A stretch of 64,000 bases of DNA from positions 209,806 to 273,805 of the forward strand of contig CAVPYB010000001.1 in NCBI GenBank assembly GCA_963709875.1, in the 5' to 3' direction. Position numbers and translations under genes: made by a program. The DNA is from an uncultured Chloroflexia bacterium (GTDB taxonomy: Bacteria > Chloroflexota > Anaerolineae > Anaerolineales > UBA4823). How positions within the stretch are numbered: position 1 is the stretch's first letter; each line of letters opens with the position of its first letter. The notes under the pieces were generated by a model. It was given only the letters and a program-made list of their open reading frames with translations, searched no databases and was not told the DNA's origin. Positions 28,701-62,905 of the stretch are shown here, piece by piece.

Positions 28701-29829
<1,129 letters not shown>

Positions 29830-38616: not shown

Positions 38617-38860
38617 TGATCCTCCAGAATGATATTGTCGATGATAGCCGGTCACCCCCAGGGCGGGTCAGTCTGATTTGGTGGACTCCAGACAGCTAAA
38701 AATTGTTGATGGGTATGACCGCAGAGATAGTACCGAGTTCGCACCCAAATGTCAAGGCTGGGGGGTACACCTTCTCATGGAATTATTAACTCATGGTACT
38801 CAGAACAGGGAGGAATTGACTATTAACCCGCTTACTGCGTAACGTCTATGATTAAGAACC

Positions 38861-40099
38861 AGGGCAAACGCATCTTAATTCTCCATCTGAGTGAAACCGA
38901 CCAGGACCTTGAGCAGGTAATCGTGGTTCCATCCTGCCAACAGGCGTTTGCCCTTGATGCCACGCTGGCAGGTTATCTCCTGCTTGAGCAAGTTCAGGGC
39001 GATATGTCGCAGCAGGGCGAAGTTCTCCGGTCCATGATCTTTGCGCACTCGGCAGCGGTCTTCGTCGAAGGCAAGATCCAGCGTCCAGTGCAGCTCATTC
39101 TCCGAGCGCACGGCCCCCAGGAGGCGTTTGGCTCCGGTGATACTGGCGATATGATAGCGGTCTTGGCTACTTTTCTCTTCACCGATCCAGCGCTGAGAGC
39201 GAATGCGGGACACGGTGGTCAAGTTCTTCCAGTTAGCAAAGCCGCGCAAGTAGCGCAAGACTTCAGGGTCGGAAATCGTCCAGCATTCGCGGATCTCGAT
39301 ACGCCCATGATCCTTGTTGACCGTCTTCTCATAGTCGAAGGCATAGGCTTGGTACTGGCTGTCTTCCAGATCGGCAAATACATGTTCGACATCTTCGTAG
39401 AGGTTGCCCTGGTTTTCCTTCAAGGAGAGCACATACTCCGCTTCTCGCTCGATAATCTTTTCGGCAATCTCGGTTTGACAGCCCATCGCATCGATGGTCA
39501 CAATGCAGCCCGCAACTTCCAAAACGTCTAAAAGCTGGGGAATGGCCGTGATCTCGTTCGACTTCTCGTCCACTTTGACCTGGCCCAGCACCAGGCGGTT
39601 GGCGCTGGCCCAGGCACTGACCATGTCGATGGCCATTTTGCCAATCCCTTTGTCATGCGAACGCCGCAGCACTTTGCCATCGATCGCAATCACCTGCCCG
39701 CCAATCACCTCAGCTACCGCATTCATCCAGCGCAGAAAACAGGTTTGGAACTGCTCCGGGTCCAGGCGGGCAAACACCCGGGTGAAGGTGTCATGCGAAG
39801 GGATGCCGTTGGGCACCTCCAGAAACGTCTGGAACCAGCCGATCCGGGCTTTGCCGAACTCTTCGACATCTTCCCAGTTGTCGGCTCCGGCAATCACCGC
39901 ACAGATGGCAATCACCAGAATATCCAGCAGCTTGTGCAACTTGGTGCGATCGATGCGCGGATCAGTCAAGTTGCCAAAATGGCTTTCGAGCGTTGGCAGA
40001 ATTTCGTCTTCCATGTCTTTTTCTCCCAGGTAGTATGACCTGGTATGATTAGCCAGGAAGATCGTTCTTGTCTAGATAAATTTAGATGCGTTCACCCTA
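38861..40099 (-). mobile_element. ISAs1-family insertion sequence with an 11-bp target-site duplication
   Basis: Inverted repeats AGGGCAAACGCATCTTAATT (38861-80) and AATTTAGATGCGTTCACCCT (40079-98). The direct repeat GATTAAGAACC flanks the element at 38850-60 and 40100-10. Confidence 0.85.
38875..40014 (-). CDS. ISAs1-family (H-repeat-associated) transposase, intact
   Basis: HFGNLTDPRIDRTKLHKLLDILVIAICAVIAGADNWEDVEEFG.., IAIDGK.LRRSHD, VTIDAMGCQ, HWTLDLAFDEDRCRVRKDHGPENFALLRHIALNLL. Confidence 0.9.
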   Translation of the reverse strand: MEDEILPTLESHFGNLTDPRIDRTKLHKLLDILVIAICAVIAGADNWEDVEEFGKARIGWFQTFLEVPNGIPSHDTFTRVFARLDPEQFQTCFLRWMNAVAEVIGGQVIAIDGKVLRRSHDKGIGKMAIDMVSAWASANRLVLGQVKVDEKSNEITAIPQLLDVLEVAGCIVTIDAMGCQTEIAEKIIEREAEYVLSLKENQGNLYEDVEHVFADLEDSQYQAYAFDYEKTVNKDHGRIEIRECWTISDPEVLRYLRGFANWKNLTTVSRIRSQRWIGEEKSSQDRYHIASITGAKRLLGAVRSENELHWTLDLAFDEDRCRVRKDHGPENFALLRHIALNLLKQEITCQRGIKGKRLLAGWNHDYLLKVLVGFTQMEN

Positions 40100-40118
40100 G
40101 ATTAAGAACCGCGCGGCG

Positions 40119-40177: not shown

Positions 40178-40249
40178 GGGCGCGTAGCTCAATGGTAGAG
40201 CAGTGGCCTTTTAAGCCATTGGTTGCAGGTTCGAGCCCTGCCGCGCTCA
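40178..40249 (+). tRNA. tRNA-Lys (anticodon UUU)
   Basis: Manual cloverleaf: acceptor GGGCGCG/CGCGCTC, D arm GCTC-AATGGTA-GAGC, anticodon arm GTGGC-CTTTTAA-GCCAT, variable loop TGGTT, T arm GCAGG-TTCGAGC-CCTGC, discriminator A. No encoded CCA. Confidence 0.95.
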
Positions 40250-40252
40250 CTG

Positions 40253-40279
40253 ACCCCCATACCTGGGGGTTATTTATTT
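40253..40279 (+). terminator. Terminator hairpin directly after tRNA-Lys
   Basis: ACCCCCA-tacc-TGGGGGT followed by TATTTATTT. Confidence 0.6.
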
Positions 40280-40400
40280 CGACATCCCGTATATGGCGGC
40301 TCTTGCTTGGGAATCTTCGAGTTTATCAATTAAAACCATGGTTTTGGCCCAGGAAAATTATTCTTTATCCAATGTGCTTGACCAGCGGAACTTATCGCTT

Positions 40401-40430
40401 GTCAACATCAGTCAACATCAGTCAACGCCA
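40401..40430. repeat. 10-bp tandem iteron-like repeat
   Basis: GTCAACATCA GTCAACATCA GTCAACGCCA (then AGCAAC), 150 nt downstream of the tRNA. Confidence 0.8.
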
Positions 40431-40691
40431 AGCAACAGATCAAGAAAGCACACCCATTAGGATAAACTCCGTCCGTGGTTCCGGACAAGATGAGTATTGA
40501 TCTGAAAGAGCACGATATCCTTTGCATTTACCCTGACTTGTAAGAGTATGTAGGTCCGACGAAGCAGTGTGGATACTGTTGCAGGGCGATTAATGAGTCA
40601 GCTTGATTTGTATATGTTTCTAATAACTGAGGTTTCTGTATTGTTCGATTCTCGCACAATCCACTGAACATAAGATTCCAGTAGCAGCAAA

Positions 40692-40724
40692 CATGACACA
40701 TCCTTGAATTCGGGATGTGTCATG
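40692..40724 (-). terminator. 12-bp perfect hairpin downstream of the small minus-strand ORF
   Basis: CATGACACATCC-ttgaattcg-GGATGTGTCATG. On the minus strand it is followed by TTTGCTGCT, a weak U-tract. Confidence 0.4.
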
Positions 40725-40746
40725 GACCAAAAATATATCAGCAAAT

Positions 40747-40953
40747 TCACGCAGGATCACGATCGGTCATCTTACCTCCAGCTTCCTGGGTTTGTTGATC
40801 AAGAAATTGCATCAACGCTTTCATATCTGCAAACCCATTTCTTTTGCCGGTATGAGGATCCTCAAGAGAAGCCCGCCAGATCCCATCGCCGTTCTGCTTT
40901 ACAAGCCACAAACGTAGTAGATAGGAGAGATAGCGATGTTTGCCCGGCTTCAT
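40747..40953 (-). CDS. Small conserved hypothetical protein (RLW...WRASLEDPHTG..GFA motif)
   Basis: MKPGKHRYLSYLLRLWLVKQNGDGIWRASLEDPHTGKRNGFADMKALMQFLDQQ. I recognise the motif as a recurrent small ORF type but cannot name a family. Start moved to the M at 40953. Confidence 0.45.
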   Translation of the reverse strand: MKPGKHRYLSYLLRLWLVKQNGDGIWRASLEDPHTGKRNGFADMKALMQFLDQQTQEAGGKMTDRDPA

Positions 40954-40969
40954 CAGCCACCTCACAACC

Positions 40970-41737
40970 TCAAGGGTTATATTTTCCAATACCAGCCAGG
41001 ACGTTTACGCGATCTTCACAAAGATCGGTGCCAATAACTTGCATGCGGAGTGAAATTGGTTTGTTGTTTTCAGTTGTCACATAAGCCTCATAGGTTGAGG
41101 TTTGGCCACTGCACCCAGCATCAAATGTTACCTTTCCTGCATCAAAGTTGTAAGTGCCAGAGTCTATCTGCCCAATGTTTTTCGACCCAGAAATGACCCG
41201 GTAGGCTCCATCTGCATCGAATTCAATCTTCAACCCCCCTTGTGGGTACCACCAAGTACCGACGATGTCATTAATCGTATTGGCGAGTGACTTTATTGGT
41301 GTGGGAAGTGGTGGAGGAAATTTCGCTAAAGAATCTGGAGCTGTAGTGAAGGTATAGGCCTGGATTTTTCCATTTTTAATCGTGGCGACCCACTCTCCTT
41401 CGATGAAGTCTACACCCATTGCTTGCAATCCTTCATCGGTATATGTAGAAATACAGGTCATGGTATCGCTCACAAATTTACAGTCCCTTAAAGATCCTGA
41501 ACCTATTCCAGAAGCAATTATCTCGTACCAGCTGCGAATTTCAGAGTGACCATTGTAAACACCGTCTCCTTCGGCAGGAGGGATAATGGTTACCTCCGCA
41601 TCTTCTGCCAGGTAAGAGAGTGCTGCATTAATTTCGCCTTTGTTCAAGGCTTCCTGCCAAGAATTGACCAAATCCTGGGTTGAAGGGCTGCATGCTGCAA
41701 TCAGGATGACAAAAAATATAAGTAACGTTATTTGTTT
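40970..41737 (-). CDS. Lipoprotein with an NTF2/SnoaL-like domain
   Basis: MKQITLLIFFVILIAAC (signal plus lipobox). The N-terminal ~110 aa resemble the SnoaL/NTF2 fold pattern. Function unknown. Confidence 0.5.
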   Translation of the reverse strand, partial: KQITLLIFFVILIAACSPSTQDLVNSWQEALNKGEINAALSYLAEDAEVTIIPPAEGDGVYNGHSEIRSWYEIIASGIGSGSLRDCKFVSDTMTCISTYTDEGLQAMGVDFIEGEWVATIKNGKIQAYTFTTAPDSLAKFPPPLPTPIKSLANTINDIVGTWWYPQGGLKIEFDADGAYRVISGSKNIGQIDSGTYNFDAGKVTFDAGCSGQTSTYEAYVTTENNKPISLRMQVIGTDLCEDRVNVLAGIGKYNP

Positions 41738-41870
41738 CATGGGATCCTCCAATCTGAAAGTCTAATTTTTTGACGCATTTTCGCCCTTATAATAACAATT
41801 AGCTGTTGGGAAAACGTGGGGTAAATACAACCTCTGATATTAATATGAATTACGTAGTTGGAAGGATGAT

Positions 41871-41916
41871 GGGGATGTTTGGGCGGACGTCGCCCGCCCG
41901 AACATCCCTGATTTTT
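41871..41916 (+). terminator. Strong orphan plus-strand intrinsic terminator upstream of the STAND gene
   Basis: 16-bp stem GGGGATGTTTGGGCGG / CCGCCCGAACATCCCT with two G-U pairs and a 7-nt loop, followed by GATTTTTCC. No plus-strand gene lies upstream of it. Confidence 0.6.
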
Positions 41917-42042
41917 CCTTAAACTGCGTAAGTCCTAATTAATTGAATTCGTTTATTAAATTGGTGAAACAAATATCTGGAGGTGCAGAAGTATCCCTGT
42001 ATAATTAACTCCAGGTCCACGTTTCTCACTTTTGAGGCGCAC

Positions 42043-45000
42043 ATGAAAACCTTAATAATTTCTGTGCTTGGGTCTCTACAAGTTGTTACAACAACGCCGA
42101 TCCAGAACAAGTTTGAGTCGAACAAAGTACGCGCCCTCCTGGCATATCTTGTTATCGAAATGGACCGGCCGCATCATCGCGAGGTGCTGGCCGATATGCT
42201 CTGGCCTGAAAGCTCGACTTTGACAGGACTGGCGAATCTTCGATACGCCCTGGCGGACCTCCGCAAAGTTATCGGAGATCATGATGCGAATCCCCCCTAC
42301 CTCTTGGTCAGCCGCGGAAATCTGCAATTTAACTCCTCGAGTAATTTTGAACTAGACGCCTCTCAATTTGCTAATTTTCTAAATACGAAAGATATTGAGA
42401 AACTCAAGCAAGGCATTGCGCTCTATCAGGGTGATTTCCTTAGCGGATTTCCTTCCATAGAGAGCAATATGTTCGAAGAGTGGCTCCTGCTCAAGCGCGA
42501 ACATTTCAAAGAGCTAGCCATCGAAGCCTTGCGCCTCATTGCTGACTATCACGAACATCGCGGAGAATACCAGCAAGCAATGCCATTTACCCGCTACCAG
42601 ACGGAGCTTGAACCCTGGCTCGAGGAAGCCTACCAGCAGTTGATGCGCTTACTCGCATTGGACGGTCAACGAAGTGCCGCGCTTGCCCAATACGAGATCT
42701 GCCGCCGTTCACTGATTTCTGAATTAGATGTTGAGCCAAGCGATGAAACGATCCAACTATACGAATCAATACGTGACGGGACTTTTAAAAAAGTTCCTCA
42801 CCTACTAAAACGAGAGCCTCCCGCGCCTGGCGAGCCGCCCTTCAAGGGACTTCAATATTTTGATGAGTCAGATGCAGATATATTCTTCGGTCGTGAAGCA
42901 TTGATTTCCCATTTGGTGGGACAGATTCAGTATCGGGAAAAATCAAGACGGGTGCGGTTTTTGGCAATCATTGGGGCATCAGGTAGCGGCAAATCATCAA
43001 TAATTAGAGCCGGATTGATTCCAGCCTTGAAACGAGACAGCAGGCCCCGCCTTGTTCAAATTATCACTCCAACAGAATACCCTCTTGATTCATTATCTTC
43101 CTGCGACATAGACAGCCCAACAGCAAAAGGACGACTTTTCTTCATTGTGGATCAATTCGAGGAGCTGTTTACTCTATGTCAGAATGAAAGTGAGCGCAGG
43201 TTTTTCATCGATAAATTGCTTAATGCCGCTGAAGAAGGATTGGCTTTTGTAGTCATCGCCCTTCGAGCAGACTTTTATGCAGCATGCGAACCTTATGAAA
43301 ACCTTCGCAGGATCCTGAGCCAGAACCAGGAATACATCGGTCCAATGAAGGCCAGCGAGCTAAGCCGGGCGATTGAAGAACCGCCCCGTGTTTATGGATG
43401 GCTGTTCGAACCGGGTCTGGCGGATTTACTGCTCCGCGACATTGGAGCAGATGGTGATCGCTCTCCAGAACCTGGTGCGCTCCCATTGCTGTCTCACGCG
43501 CTGTTGGAAACCTGGCATCGACGAAGTGGGCGAATGCTTACCCTGGCTGGCTACGCGGAATCAGGTAGTATCCATGGAGCCATCGCGAAAACCGCTGAAT
43601 TTGTATATGCCCAGCTATCAGAAAGCGAACAGTTCATCGCCCGCAATATCTTCCTGCGCCTCACAGAATTAGGAAAAGGAATGCAAGAAACTCGTCGCCG
43701 GGTTTTATTAAGCGAAATTATCCCGGCATCCAAATCAACATCGACCCAGGGTAAATCAATTGAAATCGTTTTGAAAATGCTTTCAGACGCGCGGCTTGTC
43801 ACCACAACAGAGGTGACCGCCGAGGTAGCACATGAAGCCTTGATCCGAGAGTGGGCCAGGCTTCACGAATGGCTGTCAGAGAATCGGGAATGGCTGCAAT
43901 TGCATCGTCATATCACAGAGTCAGCACAGGAATGGGAGTCGCAAGGGTATGATCCAGGTTTAGTCTATCGAGGTACTCGACTGGTACAGGCTCTGGAGTG
44001 GGCTAAAGCTCATTTGGAGGATTTGAATTTATTGGAGCGAGAATTTTTAGAAACCTCCAAATCTATAGAAGAAAAAGCAGCGGCTGAACGGGAGGAGCAA
44101 CGACAACGCGAATTGGAAGCTGCGCGCAAGTTAGCTGAATCTGAAAGAGAGCGTGCGGAAGGACAAACGCGAGCAGCCAGGCAGTTACGCCAGCGCGCCT
44201 TTTATTTAGCAAGTTTACTGTTTCTCTCACTGATCTTGGTCATCACTGCTTTTGTACAGCGTAATACTGCCAACAGACAGGCCCATCTGGCCTCAGCGCG
44301 TGAATTAGCCCTCGCATCAATCAATAATTTAGATAAGGACGCAGAACTCAGCATCCTTCTGGCATTAGAGGCAGTTTCGGAATCCAGATTAGCACGCGTA
44401 CCGGTTCCTTACCAGGTGCAAGATGCACTTCATAAAGCAATCCAAAATTCTAGGATCCATTACACCCTAGCAAAGCATAGTGGTGCTGTTGTAGCAGTAA
44501 CATACAGCCCCGATGGAAAGTTGTTGGCAACAGCCGGCAGTGATAAAAAAGTAATTCTTTGGGAAGCTGCAACGGGAAAAGAGCTGATGACTTTATATGG
44601 TCACAGCCAAGGATTGGAGGATATCGCATTTAGCCCGGACGGCAGGTATTTAGCGACAGCCAGCGATGACAAATCAGTCAAGCTGTGGAATCCTTTAAAT
44701 GGGCAAGAGTTGCGTTCGTTCACCGGCTTTACAGATGTCATTTGGAAAATCTCCTTTAGTGCAGATAGTAATTTCCTGGCAACCGGTGGCAACGAGACTG
44801 CCATCGTATGGGATATAAATACCGGACAATCAATTCTGATTTTAGAAGCGCAACACGCTCCTATCGCTTTTAGCCCCCTTGGGAAGTACCTTGCAACTTC
44901 TGGGGATGATGGCACAACAAAGTTATGGGATACAGATTCGTGGGAGGAATATCTTTCTCTTCCCTATGCCGCGAATGCGCTTGCCTTCAGTCCAGATGAG

Positions 45001-46344
45001 GAACGCCTTGTAACAGCAATGGAAGAGTTTAAAGTCTGGGATGTTCTAACCGGCGAGGAACTGATGACCCCGGCAGAATTTAAAGCTGTCGTCATAGGCA
45101 TCGAGTTTAATCCGGATGGAAGTCAGTTGGCGGCGGGAAGCCAGGATGGGACAGTGGGCATATGGGATTCGCAGACTGGAAAACGTTTGTTTATTCTGGC
45201 AGGTCATGCTGGTGCGGTCAATGATGTATCATTCAACCCAGCATGTACCGCTCCTCCAGTAGCTGCATTCGAATGGTGTGGAGGTTGGCTTGCCACGGCC
45301 AGCCGTGATGGAACGGCAAAAGTTTGGGATGTCTCTCCGGCTGGTAGTCGTGAGCTAGCTACGCTGCCGGGATTTTCTGGGTATCTCTTTAGTGAAACAC
45401 AACTATCTACCAATAAATTTATCAGCCAAAATGAGGTAGAAGTCAAAACATGGGATATATCGCTGGATGGAGCGAGCCGGTGGATTTCAAACAGCCTAAT
45501 CAGCCATCCGGCACCAATAATTCTTGGGAATAGCAGTATAGATGGATCGTTTATCGTTACCGTGGATATAGATAACACTGTGGAAGTCTGGAATGCAAAG
45601 GCGAGTAAAGAGGTGGCTTCTTTTCTGATAGATCAGAGCTCGCCATTGGCTGGTGTCGCCGTAAATTCTACAGGAACGCAAGCAACGACAGTAGGAAACG
45701 ACGGGATAGCAAAGGTATGGGACGCTACTACAGGGCGCGAATTGTTGAATTTGACAGGATTTGCTGGCGACATTGTTGGCGTTGCCTTCAGTCACGATGG
45801 AAAGCTAATTGCCATAAGTAAGTATGATGGTCCTGTCAAAGTATGGGAAATCGCAACTGGAAAGGAGGTATTAACCCTAATTGGCCACACACTGCCTGTC
45901 TATGTGATTTCTTTTAGTCCAGATGGTCAGCGAATTGCTACCGCCGGTATGGATCAGACCGCCAGAATATGGGATGTTCAAAGTGGGAACAATCTGTTCA
46001 AGCTAGAAGGACATACAGCTTCAGTCATCGCCTTGGCATTCAATACAGATGGATCTCTTCTGGTTACTGGCAGTCACGATGGAACAGCGAGAATATGGGA
46101 CATTTCGAATGGACCACAGGGAGGTGAGGAGTTACTCACTTTAATAGGGCATGATGGTTACATTGATTTCGTTTCATTCACCCCTGGGGGAAAACGTTTC
46201 GCTACAGGAAGTTTACAAGATGGAACGATACGCCTTTATCTTCTGGACATCATGGAAGTGGCTGAATTGGCACAAGCGCGACTTACCCGCTCACTGGCTC
46301 TAAAGGAGTGTCAGAAGTACCTGCATCTGGCAACTTGTCGCTAA
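42043..46344 (+). CDS. SARP (OmpR-type wHTH + BTAD) - STAND P-loop NTPase - TM helix - WD40 propeller protein, 1433 aa, intact
   Basis: N-terminus VLGSLQV...NKVRALLAYLVIE..HREVLADMLWP + BTAD (IALYQGDFL..EAYQQLMRLLALDGQRSAALAQYEICRRSL). PFKGLQYFDESDADIFFGRE. Walker A GASGSGKSS and Walker B FFIVDQFEE. Coiled coil, then TM AFYLASLLFLSLILVITAFVQ. Many WD40 units (GHSQGLEDIAFSPDGRYLATASDDKSVKLWN etc.). Confidence 0.85.
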   Translation: MKTLIISVLGSLQVVTTTPIQNKFESNKVRALLAYLVIEMDRPHHREVLADMLWPESSTLTGLANLRYALADLRKVIGDHDANPPYLLVSRGNLQFNSSSNFELDASQFANFLNTKDIEKLKQGIALYQGDFLSGFPSIESNMFEEWLLLKREHFKELAIEALRLIADYHEHRGEYQQAMPFTRYQTELEPWLEEAYQQLMRLLALDGQRSAALAQYEICRRSLISELDVEPSDETIQLYESIRDGTFKKVPHLLKREPPAPGEPPFKGLQYFDESDADIFFGREALISHLVGQIQYREKSRRVRFLAIIGASGSGKSSIIRAGLIPALKRDSRPRLVQIITPTEYPLDSLSSCDIDSPTAKGRLFFIVDQFEELFTLCQNESERRFFIDKLLNAAEEGLAFVVIALRADFYAACEPYENLRRILSQNQEYIGPMKASELSRAIEEPPRVYGWLFEPGLADLLLRDIGADGDRSPEPGALPLLSHALLETWHRRSGRMLTLAGYAESGSIHGAIAKTAEFVYAQLSESEQFIARNIFLRLTELGKGMQETRRRVLLSEIIPASKSTSTQGKSIEIVLKMLSDARLVTTTEVTAEVAHEALIREWARLHEWLSENREWLQLHRHITESAQEWESQGYDPGLVYRGTRLVQALEWAKAHLEDLNLLEREFLETSKSIEEKAAAEREEQRQRELEAARKLAESERERAEGQTRAARQLRQRAFYLASLLFLSLILVITAFVQRNTANRQAHLASARELALASINNLDKDAELSILLALEAVSESRLARVPVPYQVQDALHKAIQNSRIHYTLAKHSGAVVAVTYSPDGKLLATAGSDKKVILWEAATGKELMTLYGHSQGLEDIAFSPDGRYLATASDDKSVKLWNPLNGQELRSFTGFTDVIWKISFSADSNFLATGGNETAIVWDINTGQSILILEAQHAPIAFSPLGKYLATSGDDGTTKLWDTDSWEEYLSLPYAANALAFSPDEERLVTAMEEFKVWDVLTGEELMTPAEFKAVVIGIEFNPDGSQLAAGSQDGTVGIWDSQTGKRLFILAGHAGAVNDVSFNPACTAPPVAAFEWCGGWLATASRDGTAKVWDVSPAGSRELATLPGFSGYLFSETQLSTNKFISQNEVEVKTWDISLDGASRWISNSLISHPAPIILGNSSIDGSFIVTVDIDNTVEVWNAKASKEVASFLIDQSSPLAGVAVNSTGTQATTVGNDGIAKVWDATTGRELLNLTGFAGDIVGVAFSHDGKLIAISKYDGPVKVWEIATGKEVLTLIGHTLPVYVISFSPDGQRIATAGMDQTARIWDVQSGNNLFKLEGHTASVIALAFNTDGSLLVTGSHDGTARIWDISNGPQGGEELLTLIGHDGYIDFVSFTPGGKRFATGSLQDGTIRLYLLDIMEVAELAQARLTRSLALKECQKYLHLATCR

Positions 46345-46502
46345 CGAAATCAATCGCCATATTGGTGATGAATCGGGGAGCAGACATAAAAGGTAATCAT
46401 CAAAACTTCACAGCTGAACCCCCGGACTTTGAAAAAATATTTCAAAAGTAGCTTCGACCACAATTTAAGTCAATGTACTTCCTGTCAAGTAGTACAATTC
46501 TT

Positions 46503-46800
46503 CTAAAATGATGATCTTTCTCTAAGTCATTGTGAAGCGAATCCATTGGTACTTCCACGTTGACAGACCTTTACTAAAAATATCCAAGAGACTTATTTCT
46601 CCATTCGTCCAATGGACTGGGGCAATTCTGCCAGGCTCTTGGTTGGATGAAGCGGTTACAGGGATCTCGTCCTTTTAAGCCATTGGTTGCAGGTTCGAGC
46701 CCTGCCGCGCTCACTCAATCTCCACTTTGACCCCGAAACGGGGCGTAAAACGAGTGATTTCTCCCACTAAGACCTGCCAGTTGGCGGGTTTTTGTGTTTA
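46503..46800 (+). repeat. ~300-bp duplicated module, copy A, containing the tRNA-Lys 3' 45-mer (46671-46715)
   Basis: It aligns with 52683-52990 on both sides of the exact 45-mer. It contains TAAAAT, nested helices (CCAAGAG/CTCTTGG) and a terminator CCTGCCA-gt-TGGCGGG-TTTTTGTGTTT. Confidence 0.9.
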
Positions 46801-46908
46801 ACTTCTGGGTGAAAATAAATTACCAGAGTAAGTTGCAAATAACGTATCTCTTGTTTGGCGGTTAGAATTAATTTATTAAGAACATATCACTCTTTTTGTC
46901 TGGTAATG

Positions 46909-46936
46909 CACAACAATAAGGTGTATAATTGTTGTG
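46909..46936 (+). promoter_or_regulatory. Promoter -10 plus palindromic operator of the RHH/MazF pair
   Basis: Inverted repeat CACAACAAT (46909-17) / ATTGTTGTG (46928-36) embraces TATAAT (46924-29). Confidence 0.5.
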
Positions 46937-46973
46937 TAGTTCAGGCATGCGGGCAAAAGGAGGCGATCCAAGT

Positions 46974-47207
46974 ATGCACCGTACTCAAATCTTACTCGAA
47001 CAAGAACAGCACAAAGCTCTCACAGCCATAGCCCAGCGCGAGAATCGCAGCCTGTCCGATGTGGTCAGGGAGATGTTGCGGAAGCAGCTTGAAGAACGTA
47101 AAAAAATGGAGCTGACCGCAGCCGCGAGGGCATTACTGCCTGATTACCAGGGCGATTCTGAATTGACCGCTTTCAACGCGCTCGATGCAGAGGATTTCCA
47201 TGCGTAA
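46974..47207 (+). CDS. Ribbon-helix-helix (CopG/MazE-like) antitoxin
   Basis: MHRTQILLEQEQHKALTAIAQRENRSLSDVVREMLRK shows the RHH pattern. RBS AAAGGAGG. The stop overlaps the toxin start (ATGCGTAA). Confidence 0.8.
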   Translation: MHRTQILLEQEQHKALTAIAQRENRSLSDVVREMLRKQLEERKKMELTAAARALLPDYQGDSELTAFNALDAEDFHA

Positions 47208-47538
47208 AGGCGAAGTGTGGCTCATAAATCTTGATCCAACCATTGGAGCAGAGATCCAAAAAACGCGCCCGGCGATCATCGTCAATGAAGACGCTATTGG
47301 CATTTTACCGCTGCGAGTCATCGTCCCGTTGACGGACTGGAAAGAGCACTACCAGATCGCCCCGTGGATGGTGCGGATCGATCCGAACACGTCGAACGGC
47401 TTGAGCAAACCTACCGCCGCAGATGCATTTCAAATCCGCTCGGTGTCCCAGGTCAGGTTTATCAACCGCCTGGGTCGAATTTCTAGTGAACAGCTTTTGG
47501 AAATCTTGAAAGCCATTCAAACCGTCATTGGCACTTGA
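47200..47538 (+). CDS. mazF: MazF/PemK-family toxin endoribonuclease
   Basis: MRKGEVWLINLDPTIGAEIQKTRPAIIVN..LSKPTAADAFQIRSVS matches the PemK/MazF pattern. Confidence 0.85.
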   Translation: MRKGEVWLINLDPTIGAEIQKTRPAIIVNEDAIGILPLRVIVPLTDWKEHYQIAPWMVRIDPNTSNGLSKPTAADAFQIRSVSQVRFINRLGRISSEQLLEILKAIQTVIGT

Positions 47539-47661
47539 TTGCGCAGAAAAATCCTGTTTCTTCCCCGCTTATCGGGCCGGTTATTCAAAGCGTTGTCCAG
47601 GTGAATTTGATGAGACATGATTATTAAGGTGCGTGGCGATATACCAGTGCGAGATATTTCT

Positions 47662-49620
47662 CATAACTCGACGTTCGCTCATTTTTTAGCACAAAAACCA
47701 AATTTCTGGTATGCTCGCCAGCATGGAGAAAATCGAAGTTGGCGAGGTACAGGTTGAAAGACTGGATGATATACCTGTCATCTTTGGACATTTACACAAG
47801 ATTCACATACAAGGGGTCATTGATCGAGAGATCGAAACCCACGGCAACTGGGAAGGGCTGAGCCCTGGATGGCTGATCACGATCTGGCTGGTCCACATTC
47901 TCTCGGAACACAACCACAACATGGATCGGGTGCAGGAATGGGTAGCCAAGCGGTTACAGGTCTTGCGAGCATTGACGGGGCAAGTCCTGACAGAGCTGGA
48001 CTTTACCGACGACCGGCTGGCATTGTGCTTGCGGAAGCTGAGCCAGAGTGAAACCTGGCAATAGATCGAAGCTCAACTCGGCGTGCATCTGGTGCGGGTG
48101 TACCGGCTAGGAGCAAAGCCGACCGTGCGGCTGGACGCCACCACGGGGACGGTAAACCACGACCCGGATAAACACACCCTTTTCCAAGTTGGTAAGGCCA
48201 AGAATGGGCAGTATGAGACCCAATACAAGCTGATGCTGGCCAGCCTGGATCCCCTGGGGCTGCCCTTGGCGGTGGACGTTGTTTCCGGGGAGCGTGCCGA
48301 TGATCCGCTCTATCTGCCTTGTTACCAGCGGGTGAAGCAGGTGCTCTTTGAAAACGGTGTCCTGGTGGTGGGCGACAGCAAGATGAGTGCCTTCTTTACT
48401 CGAGCAGCCCTTGCCGCTGGCGAGGATTTCTACCTAACGCCGCTGGCCCATCTCAAGGATGAGCCCGGGCTGCTGGAAGCGCTGCTGACGCCCTGGATGG
48501 AGCGGGAAGATGAAATGGAATGCATTTTCCTGCCTGAAGATGGCCCTAATCCGGACCCGACGCTGGCCATTGGGCATGGTTTTGAGGTCAACAGAAACCA
48601 AGAAGTCGATGTGGATGGTCAGGGTGCGGCCTGGACGGAGCGGCTTCTGGTGGTACGTTCTCACCAATATGAGAAGACCATCAAGAAAGGGCTGCATCAT
48701 CGCTTGGAGAAAGCGGAGCAAGCGCTGAAAGGCTTGACCCCAGCTCGAAGCCGTGGCAAGCGTCAAATCGAAGATGAAGCCAGCCTGCTGGCAGCCATCC
48801 AGCGGATCGAAGAGAAGTACCGAGTGGCAGGGCTTTTCGAGTATCACTATGAGCAAGAGGTTTCTGAGCAGCAGGTGCGAGCCTACGGTGATCAGCCTGC
48901 TCGCACAGAACGCCAGGTGCGCTTTCAATTGACGGTCGAACGCAATCCGGAAGCCATCGCAGCCGCTGAATTCAACGCCGGATGGCGTATCTACCCACCA
49001 ACGCACCCGCTGAACAGCTGCCCTTGGACCAGGCTGTGCTAGCCTACCGGGACCAGTACATCGAGGAGAACTTCTTCCGCCGTTTGCAGGGCAAGATCCT
49101 ATCTATCACCCCAGTCTATGTGCAGCGTGATGACCATGCCAAAGACTTGTTTCATCTGCTGACCCTGGCCGCAAGACTGCTGGCCCTGGGCGATCATCTG
49201 GCCAAAGCAAATCTGGTCCAAGCGCAAGCCGAACTGGCGGGGATCTATCCCGGCAACCCAATGCGCAGTACTGCCACGCCAACCACGGAGCGCATGCTGG
49301 CCGCTTTCGATAACATCAACCCGACCGTCATACCGGTTGCGGGTCAACTGCACTATCAGATCACACCCCTCACAGCCGTGCAGCTGCGTATCCTGGAACT
49401 CTGGGAGCTGCCCGATACCCTGTACACGCAATTTTGCGCATAAAAACCCAGACAGTAGTGCGTCAGTTCCTTGTATGTGATTGTTAATGTCCCGTTTTTC
49501 AACCTTTTCGTGGGTATTTGCTGGCCTGGACGATGGATTTCAAACTCAGATTGTTTCGTCCATTTCTGCTAACGCCCGAATCCGTTTTTTCGCTTTCAAA
49601 ATCAGCGAACGTTCAGTATG
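47662..49620 (+). mobile_element. IS1634-like (IS4 superfamily) insertion sequence with a decayed transposase
   Basis: Imperfect ~29-bp terminal inverted repeats: CATAACTCGACGTTCGCTCATTTTTTAGC (47662-) versus the reverse complement of GCTTTCAAAATCAGCGAACGTTCAGTATG (-49620). No clear target duplication seen. Confidence 0.6.
47711..49443 (+). pseudogene. IS1634-family transposase with one in-frame TAG (48062-64) and one frame break (~48990)
   Basis: ORFs 47711..48064 and 48083..49042 are in the same frame, separated only by TAG (..SETWQ*IEAQLG..). The C-terminal part (..YLPTNAPAEQLPLDQAVLAYRDQY..) is in ORF 48982..49443. Confidence 0.8.
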
Positions 49621-49633
49621 AAGGATCGAAGCG

Positions 49634-50326
49634 ATGGATTACCAGGAATTCATTAATCTGTGGCTTGAAGCATTGGGGCAGGCGCGTTTCCCCAGTCTTC
49701 ACCTCCTGCGTCCCAGTGAAACCATCGATATCCGTTCCATGGATCGCACCTATAAGAACTATCTTCGGTGGCCGGAGACGCCTGAAACCAAGACTTTCCA
49801 TGTGACCGCTGAAATCTCATGGGTATGGGACTCCCTGCTTTCGGCTCGCTTTGCGACCACCGAAGAAGATATGCTGATGCAAATCTATGGTGATTTCGGC
49901 ATCTATGAGGATACTGAACCTCCCTGGTTGCGGATCGACATGGCCTTACATGCTACAATCTCGCTCGATAAACGTTTCCCTTTACCATTATTAGAAATTT
50001 GGCAGCGCTGGGAAAGAAATGTGAGCTTAGAGTTGGAGCCCTTCTTACCGGGCGGGAACTATAGTGAAGATAGTGACCAGGATACGCTTGGCTGGCATGG
50101 AAATCCGGAAGCAGTAATCACTTTTGATGCTCAAGGTCAAACGTTCTTACAGGCAGTAACTCTGAGGTCGTGGCAGGGAATCAATCTGCCGCGGCAATGG
50201 GATGATCCAGATAAAGCAGACCCTGATCTAGGTGAACAACTTTACCAATTCGCTACAAATATCAAGCAAGCGTTAGGAACCTGGCAAAATAGTCTTGTAC
50301 ACTTGCTTGAAGGTCATGAACCATGA
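49634..50326 (+). CDS. Hypothetical protein (230 aa), first gene of a three-gene operon
   Basis: Intact ORF. Its stop overlaps the next start (ATGA at 50323-26). No family recognised. Confidence 0.5.
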   Translation: MDYQEFINLWLEALGQARFPSLHLLRPSETIDIRSMDRTYKNYLRWPETPETKTFHVTAEISWVWDSLLSARFATTEEDMLMQIYGDFGIYEDTEPPWLRIDMALHATISLDKRFPLPLLEIWQRWERNVSLELEPFLPGGNYSEDSDQDTLGWHGNPEAVITFDAQGQTFLQAVTLRSWQGINLPRQWDDPDKADPDLGEQLYQFATNIKQALGTWQNSLVHLLEGHEP

Positions 50327-51215
50327 AAACGAACGTTGAACGCGTCCTGGATTATTTATGCTCGGTGAGCCCAAATGGTGCTACCAACGCGGAAATACGT
50401 GTGGCAACGGGCATTCAGCCGCACCAGCAAGTTTACATGATCACCAGTAGTCTCGTTCAGATGCGATTCGGGATCCGTTTTCTCACCTGGACAGATTATG
50501 GAATATTATGTTTCCCTTCAGGAGTCTCACAATGCCTCGCAGACCCGAAACCCTGGAACTTGTGCTTATTGCGGTGAGATGATTACCAAGCGCGGTGTAG
50601 TTAAACACATAGATAAATGTCCTAAAAGACAGGGAGCTCTTTCTGCTGCAGAAGCCAGCAGCCGGCCGGTGGAAACGCTCTGGCATTTACGCGTTCAAGA
50701 TGCTTACGATAAGGATTTTTGGCTCGACCTGGAAATGGTCGGCTCAGTATCACTCGATAAGCTCGATAAATACCTGCGCGCCATCTGGTTGGAATGTTTG
50801 CGGTCACCTGAGCAAGTTCACGATTGGCGGGTGGGGTGGCTTGGATATAGGTAAAGCGCGTAAAGCCAATGCGATATTTGAACCTGGACTGGTTCTGCGC
50901 CATCTGTATGACTTTGGCACCACGTCCGAGACCGATATCAAAGTGGTTGGATTCCGGGAAGGAAAAGCGACCACGAAACATCCAATTGCCTTGCCGGCGC
51001 GCAATCGGATGCCAGAATTTGTCTGCCAGGAATGCGGTCCGCCGGCGCAATGGCTGTGTATCGAATGTGTTTACGAAGAGGAAAATAGCGGCTATCTTTG
51101 TGACGATCACATGGAAGAACACCCGCACGAGAATTATGGCGAACCGATGCCCTTGGTCAACTCTCCACGCACCGGGATGTGCGGTTATGATGGCCCAGCC
51201 GAGCCGCCGTATTAA
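50323..51215 (+). pseudogene. wHTH + Zn-ribbon + MM3350/PRiA4_ORF3-like domain + C-terminal Cys/His cluster protein, with two homopolymer frame breaks
   Basis: N-terminus ERVLDYLCSVSPNGATNAEIRVATGI (wHTH). CAYCGE..KHIDKC. LWHLRVQ..FWLDLEM..LDKLDKYLRAIWLEC|CGHLSKF..HLYDFGTTSETDIKVVG (PRiA4_ORF3-like). CQECG..CIEC..CDDH..H. Breaks at the T-runs at 50479-82 and 50797-99. Confidence 0.65.
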
Positions 51216-51232
51216 CAGGGTGTCCAACAACC

Positions 51233-51778
51233 ATGCTACCGGCCCAGCCACAATTCCCTCTCGATGATTCGACCTGGATCATCTCCGACACTCATTTCTT
51301 CCACCAGAACATCGGCCGATACTGTGATCGTCCGGATGGCTGGCAGGAGATGATCATCGACAACTGGAACCGCCTAATTCAACCCGAAGAGATTGTCTTC
51401 CACGTCGGAGACCTGGCGCTTGGCAGGAGGAAAAATATCGAAGGCTTAGCACCTCTGCTCAACGGCCGGCTCTACCTTATGCGGGGCAACCATGATCAGC
51501 GCAGCAATGGTTTCTATCAGCACCTGGGGATTACCCTGGTATCAGATCCATATCGAATGGATCACCCCTCGGGGTTGAACCTGATCTTTTCGCACCGCCC
51601 TATCGTCCCCCTGGAACTGGGCTTGCTCAACCTGCACGGTCACATCCACAACAATCTAGCTCCCGAGCTGGGAGCACAATACGTCAACCTGTGTGTCGAA
51701 GTTCGAGACTATCGCCCCTGGCGGTTGGAGGAGATTCTAGCTCCTTATCAGCCGTCTACTGAACCCCATTTTGAATAG
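51233..51778 (+). CDS. Small calcineurin-like metallophosphoesterase
   Basis: Motifs ISDTHFFH, HVGDLALG, RGNHD, SHRP, HGHIHN. Confidence 0.8.
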   Translation: MLPAQPQFPLDDSTWIISDTHFFHQNIGRYCDRPDGWQEMIIDNWNRLIQPEEIVFHVGDLALGRRKNIEGLAPLLNGRLYLMRGNHDQRSNGFYQHLGITLVSDPYRMDHPSGLNLIFSHRPIVPLELGLLNLHGHIHNNLAPELGAQYVNLCVEVRDYRPWRLEEILAPYQPSTEPHFE

Positions 51779-51856
51779 CCGGCATTCAGGGCTTAATTTA
51801 TCGCTTCGGTAATGCTGCTGGTGTACTCCAGTAAGCCGTTATAAATCGACGCACTA

Positions 51857-51895
51857 ATTGTGTACACAATAATCATTGTTTACTTTCTGTGCACA
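51857..51895 (+). promoter_or_regulatory. Palindromic operator candidates upstream of phd/PIN
   Basis: ATTGTGTACACAAT (perfect 14-bp palindrome, 51857-70) and TGTGCACA (51888-95), followed by TATACT (51901-06) and RBS GGAGGTG. Confidence 0.45.
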
Positions 51896-51933
51896 TTATG
51901 CTATACTGGTTCTGTTTAGAATGGAGGTGCAGT

Positions 51934-52230
51934 ATGACTATAGTTATTGGTGCGCGTGAGGCTCGCCGGCGGTTTGCTGATTTGCTTGGGCGGGTCGGCT
52001 ACGGCGGAGAGGTTGCCATCGTTGAGCGGTCGGGCAAACCCATGGTGGCGCTCATCCCCGTAGAAGTTTATGAACAGTTGGTGGCTGAGCGTGAGGCGCG
52101 TTTCCAGGTGCTGGATCGCATCCGCGGCAAGCTGCCGGAGATCCCAGAAGAAGAAGTTGAGACCGATATCAGCCAGGCTATTGATGTTGTGAGGAAGTCA
52201 GCGTCTAAAGAACGGGCAGAGTCTGATTAG
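51934..52230 (+). CDS. Phd/YefM-family antitoxin
   Basis: MTIVIGAREARRRFADLLGRVGYGGEVAIVERSGKPMVALIPVEVYEQL shows the Phd/YefM pattern. Confidence 0.8.
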   Translation: MTIVIGAREARRRFADLLGRVGYGGEVAIVERSGKPMVALIPVEVYEQLVAEREARFQVLDRIRGKLPEIPEEEVETDISQAIDVVRKSASKERAESD

Positions 52231-52235
52231 CCACC

Positions 52236-52664
52236 ATGCTGCGCATCGTGATCGACACGAATGTGATTGTCAGCGGCATCTTGAGCCGTAAAGGAACGCC
52301 GGCTGAACTATTAAATGCCTGGCGTGAGCGGCGGTTTTTGTTGCTCAGCTCCTCTGCTATCGTTGCCGAAGTACGGGCCGTCATGCAATATCCGCGCATC
52401 CATAAAAAATATCATCTCAGCGATGATGATATTGAACAGACGATTACACTCTTGGAACATGACTCGCTGTTGGTAGCAGGAGACGCCGATGTCACCGGAA
52501 GTGTCCCGGATGATCCAAAGGATGAGATGTTTCTGGCTTGCGCTTTGGACGGGCAGGCGGATGCAATCGTGAGCGGTGACCATCACCTGCTAGATCTAGG
52601 TGTCTTTCGGGATATCCCGATTATCAATGCTCGTCAATTTCTGGACCAACTGAAGCAAGAGTGA
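52236..52664 (+). CDS. PIN-domain toxin (VapC-like)
   Basis: MLRIVIDTNVIVSG..., DDPKDEMFLACAL, AIVSGDHHLL carry the PIN acidic residues. Starts 6 nt after the antitoxin. Confidence 0.8.
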   Translation: MLRIVIDTNVIVSGILSRKGTPAELLNAWRERRFLLLSSSAIVAEVRAVMQYPRIHKKYHLSDDDIEQTITLLEHDSLLVAGDADVTGSVPDDPKDEMFLACALDGQADAIVSGDHHLLDLGVFRDIPIINARQFLDQLKQE

Positions 52665-52682
52665 CCTTGCGTCGCCATGTGG

Positions 52683-52990
52683 TAGAATGAACTCAATCGC
52701 TGTCTTTCGCTGAGTCATTGTGAAGCAAATCCATTGGTTGCTTCCGCGTTGACAGACCTTTACTAAAAATATCCAAGAGACTTATTTCTCCATTCGTCCA
52801 ATGGACTGGGGCGATTCTGCCAGGCTCTTGGTTGGATGAAGCGGTTACAGGGATCTCGTCCTTTTAAGCCATTGGTTGCAGGTTCGAGCCCTGCCGCGCT
52901 CACTCTATTTCCACTTTTGCCCCTAAAAGGGCGTAAAACGAGTGATTTCTCCCACTAAGACCTGCCAGATGGCGGGTTTTTGTGTTTAAT
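52683..52990 (+). repeat. ~300-bp duplicated module, copy B, containing the tRNA-Lys 3' 45-mer (52860-52904)
   Basis: See copy A. TGGTAGAAT at 52681-88. Terminator CCTGCCA-ga-TGGCGGG-TTTTTGTGTTT. Confidence 0.9.
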
Positions 52991-53215
52991 CCCCCACTAT
53001 TACCGTTTTTCGGGTATGCCAGAAAATCGGGTTCAGAATTTATTGCCAATGTTCGCGTTTTTGTTCGAGCCAGTCAACAAGGGTTAACGGTACACCAAAA
53101 GCCTTGTCAAGGATATTCGATGATGATCGGACGGCACTATCGTCCTTGGAAAGGCTCTGGGGAACTGTACCAGAAGGGACTGCTCGGTATGCCTCAAGTA
53201 ATCCCAATGTTTAAC

Positions 53216-55386
53216 TTAGCTGAACTTCAGGGGCAGACGGCGAAAGCGCTGACCCGTGGCAGCAAAAACCGCATTCGCCACAGCAGCTGGAATGGGACCA
53301 ATCGGCGGTTCACCCATACCCGAAGGCGTTGAGCGGCTGTTGAGCACCAGGACATCGATATCCGGAGCGTCGGCATTACGCAGCAGCGGATATTCATTGA
53401 AGTTGCTCGCCTTGAATGCACCGTCTTCGATCAGCACCACCTCCAGCAACGTGGAGCTCAAGCCCATCGTGATCGCGCCCTCCGTCTGGGCTTTGACGCT
53501 GTCTGGATTGATAGCCATGCCAGGGTCAGCAACGGCGGTCACTTTGTGAATACGAATCTGACCATTCTCAACGGAGACTTCAGCAATTTCGACGATTATT
53601 GTACCAACATCGTAGCTCATCGCCAGCCCTTGCGCGTGACCAGCTGGCAGGGCTGCTCCCCAGTTTGCCTTTCGGCAGCCGTTTGCAGGGCATTGCGAAT
53701 TCTCTGCCCCTTTTCATTATCCGGCAGATGGCGCAGCCGGAACTCCAGTGGGTCCAGACTTGCGGCTGCAGCCAGCTCATCGATGAAACTCTCCACTGCA
53801 AAGGTATTGGCCATCAGACCCAACCCGCGCCACCAGCCAGTCGAGACCGGTAATTTCACCAGCCAGGCTGTGGTTTGGATATTCTGCACCCCATAATTGA
53901 TGGTAGCCCCGCGATAGGAGCCAAAATCGGCGCCCAGCAACCTGCCAACAGCACTGGGCAGGAAGGCAAAGGCGACCTCCCCGCTGGCTGCCTGGTGCTC
54001 TAGCGCCAGCATATTCCCATCTTCAGCCAGGCTGGCACGCAGGATATGATGCGTGGGTGGACGTACAAAACCGCTGCGGAAATCTTCTGGGCGGTTCATC
54101 GCCACCTGCACCGGTCTACCCGCAGCCTGCGATAGGCGAGCCGCCTCCACCGCGGCCCGCTCGTCGATCTTGCGCCCGAACCCACCTCCCAGGTAAACGG
54201 GATGGATGACAACCTCTTCTTCTTTTCGCCCAATGGCATCCGCAACCGCACCGCGCAACCGGTTAGCTGCCTGTGTCGAAGCCCAGACTTCCACCTTTTC
54301 TGTCCGCACATCAGCAACGGCTGCCAGAGGCTCTAAATAGGCGTGGTATGCCATCGGGGTGCGGTATTCAGCTTCGACCAACGTGCCACGTGCCAGCGCC
54401 TGATCCAGGTTGCCTTCTTTCTGGATCACCACGCCCTGACCTTTGCCTACCGTGACCATGGCCTCAATTTCCTGCTGCTGCCATAACCTGCCAGCGTCCC
54501 ATTCCAGCTGCATCTGAGACAGCGCAGTATAAGCCTGCTCGCGCAACTCGGCCACCACCCCGGCAAAATCGTCATCTGCCACAACCTGCACCACCCCGGG
54601 TTGACTTTCGGCCTGACCCGGAGCAGCCCTCCTCAACTTGCCATCGATGGTCTCGGGGCGAGCGACAGCACCATACAACATTCCCGGCACACGCACATCG
54701 AATCCATAAACCGCCTGACCGGTGATCTTTGCAGGTAAATCTACGCGCGGCAGCGGCTGACCGATGGTACGATACTGGCTGGGTGGCTTGAGCGCGGGCG
54801 GGGATTCGGGTATCTCCCATTCACCTGCTGATATAAACAGGTCGCCATATGTACGCTGCTGGCTGGGATCTGATTTCAAACTGAAAACGCCGTTTTCCAG
54901 GTTAAGATTTTCGGGTTGGGTATTTAACTGCAAGGCGGCCTCGGCGCGCAGCAGCTCTCGCAGCGTGGCTGCCACTTCCAGCAAAGGAACATACAAACCA
55001 GAAATCGTGTTGCTGGCTGATGTGGCAACCGGGTCTGCCAGCCGGTCTGTCGCTGCATGGTGCACCCGGATCTGCTCCAGGTCAATTTCAAGCTCCTCCG
55101 CTGCAATCTGAGCCAGACCGGTGTGCACACCCTGGCCCATCTCGGATTTCGGCAGGTAGAGATTGACCGTGTTATCTGGCAGGATTTCAAACCAGGCATC
55201 CGGAGGGGCATCAAGATTTGAAGGAGGGCCGCCCGACTCTTCCAGAAATTCTGCCAGCCTCAGGCGTAATGGCGGCGTGCCCAGCCTTACCCCGACGTAA
55301 AGCCCGGCAGCACCCACGCCAAGCATAATCAGGAAATTACGCCGGCTCAGACGCCTTCGTTTTTGGGGGGTAATCTGTTCGCTCAT
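53216..55386 (-). pseudogene. Molybdopterin-binding subunit of an IorB/aldehyde-oxidase-type oxidoreductase (Tat signal), with one homopolymer frame break
   Basis: Start MSEQITPQKRRRLSRRNFLIMLGVGAAG (twin-arginine). ORF 53617..55575 continues in ORF 53216..53620. Restoring one A in the run at 53670-72 gives ..AAEKANWGAALPAGHAQGLAMSYDVG.. Confidence 0.75.
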
Positions 55387-55874: not shown

Positions 55875-56044
55875 ATCTTCCTCTCAATAATATTGATTTC
55901 TCGCGTGGTCAGGCACAGCGGGAGCATGCCTTCTTCTAACTTGATTTCAGGATCAAAACATGAAGAATCTTCTGAGAGTGCAGCTAAACCCAAAGCATAT
56001 ATTTGGCGATGCCCAGAACTTGCCAGTCGACTTCGCGTTCTATT

Positions 56045-57298: not shown

Positions 57299-57423
57299 AT
57301 CACACCTACTATCTATCTAGAATCGGGTATAAGTACAGTATTCAATTGTGTTCTCTGGCGTAGTGTTGATGCAAGCAACTTCACTGGCAATAGAATACTC
57401 CCATTAAAGTTCAAATTTCAAAT

Positions 57424-60767: not shown

Positions 60768-60842
60768 CCTGAATTATCCATTTCATGGACCACGTTGCTT
60801 GTTTCCCAGCCTTTACCCAAGAATATCATCTATACGATCCTA

Positions 60843-62847: not shown

Positions 62848-62905
62848 AACGCACTCCTATAGATACTGTGTGTAGACAAATTGCGTGCTCTGATATTGTA
62901 TTGCA

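Follow-up and report, generated by a model that had tools for sequence, protein, structure and literature searches.

In a 64-kb stretch of DNA from an uncultured Chloroflexia bacterium (positions 209,806 to 273,805 of contig CAVPYB010000001.1, assembly GCA_963709875.1; this whole stretch is called the window), an intact tRNA-Lys(UUU) gene is followed by a tandem array of accessory modules bounded by copies of the tRNA 3' part. It is the only intact tRNA-Lys(UUU) gene of the window according to ARAGORN and Rfam. The repeated 45-mer (CCTTTTAAGCCATTGGTTGCAGGTTCGAGCCCTGCCGCGCTCACT) spans from the anticodon stem/loop to 2 nt beyond the discriminator base. Three exact copies were found on the plus strand (core copies 1 to 3, Table 1) with spacings of 6464 and 6189 bp, and no further match with up to three mismatches is present in the window (chance expectation 0). 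As in tRNA-targeting genomic islands, the direct repeat equals the 3' part of the tRNA and would restore the gene upon integration; the tRNA gene is intact. The core copies delimit module A (40252-46715) and module B (46716-52904). The stump of a third element, C, follows and is joined to an iorB-like gene. The G+C content is 43-52% over 40-53 kb, except for the remnant of an insertion sequence (IS) at 48-49 kb, and 55-65% left of the tRNA. A simple tandem duplication was ruled out, as A and B share no cargo.

A first-pass annotation, made from the letters alone, had claimed the tRNA, a 45-nt repeat of its 3' part in three identical copies of direct orientation, and AT-richer DNA between them. 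It had also listed as cargo a STAND-WD40 protein, two toxin-antitoxin pairs (here RHH/MazF and Phd/PIN), an IS (here a broken transposase) and an orphan operon of three genes (here unannotated open reading frames (ORFs) and a metallophosphoesterase), and had seen no recombinase or remnant between 40.25 and 53.2 kb. All of this was reproduced, the cargo by Pfam and the lack of a recombinase by Pfam, tblastn and a hidden Markov model (HMM). Two tandem modules bounded by attachment (att) sites had been described as well. Two complete modules are indeed present, but a truncated third follows, so that the array does not end at 52904 as had been stated; the left arm of the further element continues to ~53088. 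The 45-mer itself is exact, but copies 2 and 3 sit in a considerably longer repeat. We regard it as likely that the array represents a tandem accretion of integrase-less, att-bounded modules, comparable to cis-mobilizable elements (CIMEs), at the single tRNA-Lys(UUU) gene, and that the recombinase is supplied from elsewhere.

The longer repeat around core copies 2 and 3 comprises ~287 nt with ~95% identity (46515-46801 vs 52703-52989); the two copies agree without mismatch over at most 92 nt. Its part upstream of the core, 156 nt and with weaker similarity up to ~190 nt, was named P, and the 85 nt downstream X. In module B the left arm is reduced to X, which is 93% identical to the X after copy 3; the leader with GTCAAC repeats and the integrase gene are missing. 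Module A has a different left arm. The hairpin after copy 1 is unlike X, a AATTATTCTTTATCCAATGTGCTTG box follows ~100 nt further on, and no integrase gene is present behind the GTCAAC repeats. GTCAAC is present three times in direct orientation in the left arm and once, inverted, in P. These repeats may be protein-binding sites or equally operators of the integrase promoter.

A scan of one genome per species with the 3' 43-mer of the tRNA yielded 11 stretches, all from Chloroflexota or Anaerolineales-type metagenome-assembled genomes (MAGs); stretches of other assemblies are designated by L numbers. The left flank of L002 (Cbi transporter, Fur) is syntenic with the window at 86-87% nucleotide identity. 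Behind tRNA-Lys, L002 has X, then a leader of ~100 nt with the box and three GTCAAC repeats, and finally a gene for a tyrosine recombinase (PF00589). The same order of tRNA-Lys, X, leader and integrase gene was observed on three contigs with homologues of this recombinase, L012, L013 and L015, at the MetK-(CbiO/Q/M-Fur)-Trx-tRNA-Lys locus, which is orthologous to 33.7-40.2 kb of the window. A native tRNA trailer was ruled out as sole explanation for X: in four relatives X separates the tRNA from the integrase gene, and its divergence is independent of that of module A. A tyrosine recombinase gene adjoins the tRNA-proximal att site in these four stretches and in L014, and is absent from this place in the window. 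The AATTATTCTTTATCCAATGTGCTTG box and GTCAAC repeats of module A match the integrase leaders of the same five relatives, and its type of left arm is also present in L018 and L026. Such left arms retain the integrase leader without the gene.

More than 390 homologues of the recombinase were found, and the complete ones comprise ~338 aa. The enzyme is Xer-like with XerD as best solved relative, but scores below every NCBIfam cut-off for Xer proteins, and a separate arm-binding domain is absent. Between L002 and L013 the integrase segment is 92% identical at the nucleotide level, the host flanks only 72-74%; therefore, the integrase-bearing element itself is horizontally mobile. Downstream of the tRNA no second copy of its 3' half, i.e. 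no attR, was detected within ~11 kb (L012, L015) or 5.6 kb (L013). In the window no tyrosine recombinase was recognized by Pfam among the main ORFs of 36.7-64 kb, and a search of all six frames of the whole window with the relatives' integrase (tblastn) and the family HMM gave nothing better than E = 0.2. Integrase, excisionase and transfer genes were not found by Pfam among the main ORFs of 40-53 kb, where a small unrecognized excisionase could escape. No relaxase or conjugation gene was seen in any of the relatives fetched. The viral collection contained no match to the 45-mer, the P arm or the integrase, and nothing supports a phage origin.

The P arm adjoins a core copy at eight other loci (L007, L016, L017/L019, L018, L020, L021, L022, L026) with a conservation of at least 85-97%. 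L007 is a second contig of the L002 MAG, and L016-L019 are metagenome contigs. The cargo left of P differs between the loci (WD40 protein, DUF4143 ATPase, 'Sensor' protein or PIN toxin) and is unrelated in several of them; the 156-nt arm beside each downstream 45-mer is shared by at least 6 unrelated sets of cargo. The two copies of the window were aligned with 6 copies from other assemblies, and ~135 nt from AATCCATTGG to the core are nearly invariant across these eight. An extended -10-like motif (TGnTAnAAT) is found at the distal end of P in most of the eight copies, even where the surroundings differ. With the motif facing the core and the X terminator, a putative transcript would be ~290 nt long. 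The fold of the P arm has a z-score of -3.0, T-arm and terminators included. RNAalifold detected no covariation within the P arm in the eight copies, because the base pairs are invariant. A structured RNA is neither supported nor contradicted by these results.

Module A was found as a discrete unit in another assembly. On the 745-kb contig L026 the order metallophosphoesterase-Phd-PIN-P-core is followed by the entire module A, with ~99% identity overall and 96-99.6% in every 250-nt bin of 40252-46715. Both proteins of module A have 98% identity. Directly beyond the two cores the values per bin drop to ~80% and 62%, and the B-like DNA of L026 is only 84-88% identical to the window. Furthermore, the order of the modules differs: A precedes B in the window, whereas the B-like module comes first in L026. 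As window and L026 diverge in the X that follows core 2, this X is part of B and lies outside A. Module A has complete arms and appears to have moved recently. Its near-identity in two genomes at different array positions is the sign of this movement and is compatible with a route in trans as well as in cis.

Parts of module B are also distributed among assemblies. The segment with metallophosphoesterase, Phd and PIN is 88-93% identical at the nucleotide level in L018, L020, L021 and L026, and at least four other assemblies contain the right end of the module beside neighbours that differ. In L018 this right end (89.5%) is followed by a core and an A-type left arm with a different integrase-less cargo. 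L022 represents the orthologous locus, where the host flank is only 69.5% identical, the P arm 94%. The B-like module of L022 (77.5% over 50532-51877, 87.6% over Phd-PIN) has Fic as first gene and no integrase. The right end of B is closer than the host genes in L022, the sole case with the host flank available.

Comparison with related genomes had been proposed in the first-pass annotation to find empty sites or single modules, and an identical arrangement in all relatives was regarded there as a sign of a fixed structure. Variable configurations do exist, and the data of L026 and L022 argue against a fixed arrangement; a clean empty site was not found for this genus. In the distant relatives L001, L008, L009 and L011 a simple terminator is located directly after the tRNA. 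The proposed site-specific integration into the anticodon-loop/3' part of tRNA-Lys is supported by the adjoining recombinase of the relatives, by the conserved P arms, by the bounding of module A by cores and its other array position in L026, and by the recurrence of the right end of B beside different genes.

Concerning the crossover, the identity block starts at the anticodon loop, and at three places (L017 4901-4953, L019, L022 10549-10721) no more than the first 16 nt of the core (CCTTTTAAGCCATTGG) remain beside P, with unrelated DNA beyond. Both the block and these remnants point to a crossover in the anticodon loop. The 16-nt breakpoint recurs in two different contexts and could mark the crossover region or secondary-site events. 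Degenerate second tRNA 3' halves with an insertion of 15-16 nt in the T-loop were observed in L022 (4230-4290, 10722-10790) and L020 (9105-9170). Each of them is preceded by CCAATGGCC(A)G, the inverted copy of GCCATTGG of the core, and lies between the terminator hairpin and X/leader. Older integrations may have left them behind as relics, or they may represent a variant type of att site.

The modules have the form left arm, cargo, P and 45-bp tRNA 3' copy, and intact family members carry the gene for the 338-aa Xer-like recombinase right after the leader. Strand exchange by this recombinase would take place within the 45 bp of identity. An element in circular form, with P, core and left arm, would insert at the tRNA or at any resident core copy, its own tRNA 3' half would restore the gene, and repeated insertion would lead to accretion of the array. 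Modules without integrase would move by the enzyme of a sibling element in trans or by co-excision with a neighbouring module in cis. Module B can probably leave only within an A-B composite, because its left arm is truncated. Module C is a dead stump. Mobilization in trans or fossils had been offered as the two states of the modules in the first-pass annotation; the evidence favours recent mobility for A and decay for the third stump.

Several points weigh against this reading. The junction of A and B is known from this assembly alone. In L026 the core at the left junction of module A differs at positions 27-36 and in the first base past the core, which would be compatible with a crossover close to the 3' end or with subsequent drift. 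That this organism has a helper integrase is a postulate. The role of the arms and of GTCAAC as recombinase sites is a conjecture, because the integrase is Xer-like without a recognizable arm-binding domain. Finally, the left arm of B and the element C are truncated and no att site is present at the right end, so part of the array is decaying.

Such decay is what is expected if the modules are fossils, i.e. islands that once had an integrase, lost it and became a fixed, immobile part of this chromosome. The integrase is absent from the window, the left arm of B is cut directly after X, the third element is cut ahead of the integrase and fused to iorB, and the transposase within B is broken. 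In contrast, module A is nearly identical in L026, far more so than the neighbouring B-like DNA, has a different array position there and breaks exactly at the cores. Moreover, the ends of five left arms without integrase (those of window A and C, L018, L020 and L022) all fall between -35 and +7 of the integrase start and are not scattered within the ~1-kb gene. This clustering would fit selection to retain a functional arm and not random decay. A fossil array is therefore considered improbable.

The same breakpoints are open to a bolder explanation, in which Anaerolineae possess a system for capture at tRNA-Lys and the integrase-less modules are its normal 'cassettes' and no decay products. 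The recurrent loss of the integrase within 40 nt of the start codon would then be a defined modular boundary and not a random deletion. The Xer-like recombinase would act in trans and shuffle multi-gene modules with defence and toxin-antitoxin genes among genomes and array positions. P would be an accessory sequence or encode the ~290-nt transcript, which would begin at the extended -10, pass through P and the 3' half of the tRNA, stop at the X terminator and control recombination or expression. We regard such a system as speculative and rather doubtful.

Exchange of modules by homologous recombination, e.g. after transformation, would do without a dedicated site-specific recombinase, with the conserved arms as portable homology. 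P, core and X provide 200-290 bp at 85-97% identity between genomes, and the 287-nt direct repeats around B could allow a RecA loop-out of this module. On the tRNA side, however, module A shares only the 45-bp core with the L026 context, yet the break lies exactly at the core on both sides, and a dedicated recombinase gene is physically linked to the arms in relatives. This makes homologous recombination as the only agent very unlikely. Least credible is an assembly artefact, in which the P-core-X repeat would have led to the joining of contigs from different strains or genomes: copies 2 and 3 have the 92-nt exact stretch in common, the contigs of L003, L006 and L021 stop at this locus and many integrase and PIN homologues lie on very short contigs, so that the repeat does break assemblies, the source is an assembly of an uncultured organism and a 1-nt homopolymer indel splits iorB, but the flanks of the two copies differ by ~5% and the modules in content, so that no copy was collapsed or duplicated, and the junction types A-P-core-X and B-P-core-next-arm are present in independent assemblies.

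The tandem accretion of integrase-less modules, which we prefer, is a structure of a known kind that is newly seen in this lineage; the phenomenon itself is well known. CIMEs and tandem accretion at tRNA genes were described for the ICESt1/ICESt3 family and for the tRNA-Lys elements of Streptococcus agalactiae (PMC5704250). Like CIMEs, A and B are flanked by exact 45-mers that include the 3' end of the target, have conserved arms inside, carry no integrase, excisionase or transfer genes detectable by the searches given above, and are found in tandem with related elements at one tRNA. As for CIMEs, their mobility would rest on the recombinase of a related element. They differ by the uncultured Chloroflexota host, the lack of a conjugation module in the relatives fetched, the long and highly conserved arms (156-190 nt in the window) and the Xer-like recombinase of the relatives.

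Within the same phylum, the ssrA islands of Dehalococcoides are arranged in tandem; 15 of 31 have no integration module, and the authors suggested that these are CIMEs (PMC3146451). The array of the window likewise consists of multiple tandem islands downstream of a single-copy small-RNA gene with direct repeats of its 3' end. The target is tRNA-Lys with a 45-bp repeat instead of the Dehalococcoides tmRNA with a 20-bp repeat. An Xer-like tyrosine recombinase in the relatives of the window takes the place of the serine recombinase DsiB, and toxin-antitoxin pairs and a STAND NTPase that of the reductive dehalogenases.

The identity block of the window begins at the anticodon loop and stops shortly after the tRNA 3' end, so that the element brings its own 3' half as a replacement. 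Islands and prophages directed to the anticodon loop are built in this way; Williams reportedly classified tyrosine-recombinase islands and prophages in 2002 by their sublocation in the tRNA, including this loop. Unlike in these, the integrase gene that is normally located beside the tRNA is absent in the window. Integrative mobile elements exploiting Xer (IMEX) lack an integrase, use Xer recombinases encoded elsewhere and occur in tandem at one chromosomal site, dif. The modules of the window are similarly integrase-less, in tandem at one site and presumably dependent on an Xer-type recombinase encoded elsewhere. They differ from IMEX as the site is a tRNA gene and the Xer-like enzyme would come from sibling mobile elements and not from the XerC/D of the host. 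The array is no integron: an integrase is absent, the modules of ~6 kb contain multiple genes and are bounded by arms of 150-200 nt, not by attC hairpins, and the relatives' recombinase scores far below the cut-offs for integron integrases. Integrase, primase and packaging-hijack genes, as expected for phage satellites such as phage-inducible chromosomal islands (PICI) or P4-like elements, were not found in the modules of the window. Only L015 has, behind the integrase, a gene resembling that of a primase and another with faint resemblance to that of a small terminase.

PADLOC and NCBIfam gave nothing useful for the unannotated cargo and only marginal 'mads' matches for the STAND protein. In relatives the cargo at the tRNA-Lys hot spot includes BTAD-AAA-TPR, AbiEi/AbiEii, Wadjet JetA/JetB, Fic and pairs of HepT and nucleotidyltransferase (L022 11147-20429, L026 4325-5775, L013 6796-7586). 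The tRNA-Lys locus behaves as a defence and toxin-antitoxin island in this clade. Across 38-54 kb Rfam reported nothing at E <= 1 beyond the tRNA and one spurious miRNA-like hairpin. The latter is a mir-365 match to an intergenic hairpin of ~80 nt between the module A genes (41850-41930). It is 74% similar to L002 2538-2618, at an unrelated position, and may be a small dispersed palindromic repeat.

At the right end the C stump is 75-80% identical at the nucleotide level to the tRNA-X-leader of L002, L012 and L013. The similarity stops at ~53088, where C is cut ~35 nt ahead of the position of the relatives' integrase start codon. In three relatives of the iorB-like gene (82-94% nucleotide identity) the similarity ends exactly at 53218-53221, with other genes beyond; the array is not beside iorB in any of the three. 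Therefore, the array ends on the right in a joint left by a deletion or rearrangement and not in an attR. No further att-like sequence was found right of the array in the window, and none of the tRNA-Lys loci fetched is syntenic with the right flank (53-64 kb). Compared with the 94% identical L025, a 1-nt deletion in an A-run near 53673 splits the iorB-like gene into ORFs of 652 and 134 aa; homologues comprise 723 aa. The split is either a pseudogene or a homopolymer sequencing error. Errors of this kind, hinted at by the indel in iorB, might also explain the 'broken' transposase of module B.

An ISAs1-type IS lies outside the array, on the upstream side of the tRNA-Lys promoter (TTGACG...TGATAGAAT) and ~20 nt away from its -35; the promoter itself is intact. 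The IS is absent from the syntenic L002, where the alignment skips from 38789 to 40104. At a greater distance, a tandem repeat with a period of 39 nt, rich in GAAGAAGAG, was noticed at 29515-29730. It encodes an acidic Glu/Asp-rich stretch and falls between stretches that match the genes of ribosomal protein S2 and EF-Ts of L012. A second low-G+C block (43-50%) at 56000-64000 contains genes for a FabF-like KAS, a MacB-type ABC permease and ATPase, PlsY-like, ferrochelatase/CbiX-like and PEP-utilising-domain proteins. No att-like repeats were found inside, and the block may be another acquired region running past the window end.

Table 1 Features of the tRNA-Lys array and its neighbours (positions in the window)
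Feature	Position	Strand	Description and basis
ISAs1-type IS	38861-40098	-	Transposase 38875-40014, 379 aa; Pfam DDE_Tnp_1_assoc and DDE_Tnp_1; 20-nt terminal inverted repeats
Intact tRNA-Lys(UUU)	40178-40250	+	ARAGORN; Rfam tRNA 74.6 bits; exact 45-mer
Core copy 1, left att junction of the array	40207-40251	+	tRNA 3' 44 nt and 1-2 flanking nt
Left arm of module A	40252-40430	+	Terminator-like hairpin (gacccccatacctggggg and T-run), AATTATTCTTTATCCAATGTGCTTG box, three direct GTCAAC repeats 40401-40426
Module A ORF, 260 aa	40970-41752	-	Weak SnoaL-like match (Pfam)
Module A BTAD-nSTAND1-WD40 NTPase, 1453 aa	41983-46344	+	Pfam
P arm of module A	46480-46670	+	Inverted GTTGAC 46559-46564; CCATTGG/CCAATGG motifs; 95.5% identical to P of B
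Core copy 2, A/B junction	46671-46715	+	Exact 45-mer; right limit of the ~99% identity block with L026
X, truncated left arm of module B	46716-46801	+	Hairpin and intrinsic-terminator-like stem 46769-46792, T-run
Module B ribbon-helix-helix (RHH) antitoxin	46929-47207	+	Pfam
Module B MazF toxin	47185-47538	+	Pfam
Module B DUF4277/DDE transposase, broken into three ORFs	47711-49443	+	Pfam
Module B ORFs without family match	49634-51267	+	Pfam
Module B metallophosphoesterase	51233-51778	+	Pfam
Module B Phd	51889-52230	+	Pfam
Module B PIN	52236-52664	+	Pfam
P arm of module B	52668-52859	+	Extended -10-like TGTGGTAGAAT 52678-52688; inverted GTTGAC 52748-52753
Core copy 3	52860-52904	+	Exact 45-mer
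Stump of third element C	52905-53088	+	X (terminator 52957-52980) and leader to the second GTCAAC-like repeat 53073-53088
Non-att junction	53089-53220		~127 nt of unassigned DNA between C stump and stop codon of the iorB-like gene
iorB-like molybdenum hydroxylase gene	53216-55575	-	Right neighbour of the array

The accepted view of how such islands work is unchanged by these results. They provide a clean sequence-level example of island accretion at a tRNA gene in uncultured Chloroflexota (Anaerolineae-like), with defined arms and a candidate recombinase family, and comparative evidence that an integrase-less module of 6.5 kb with a STAND NTPase moved recently. The arm sequences could explain assembly breaks at the tRNA-Lys locus. 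As tRNA-Lys is a hot spot for toxin-antitoxin and defence cargo, they could also mark such cargo in metagenomes.

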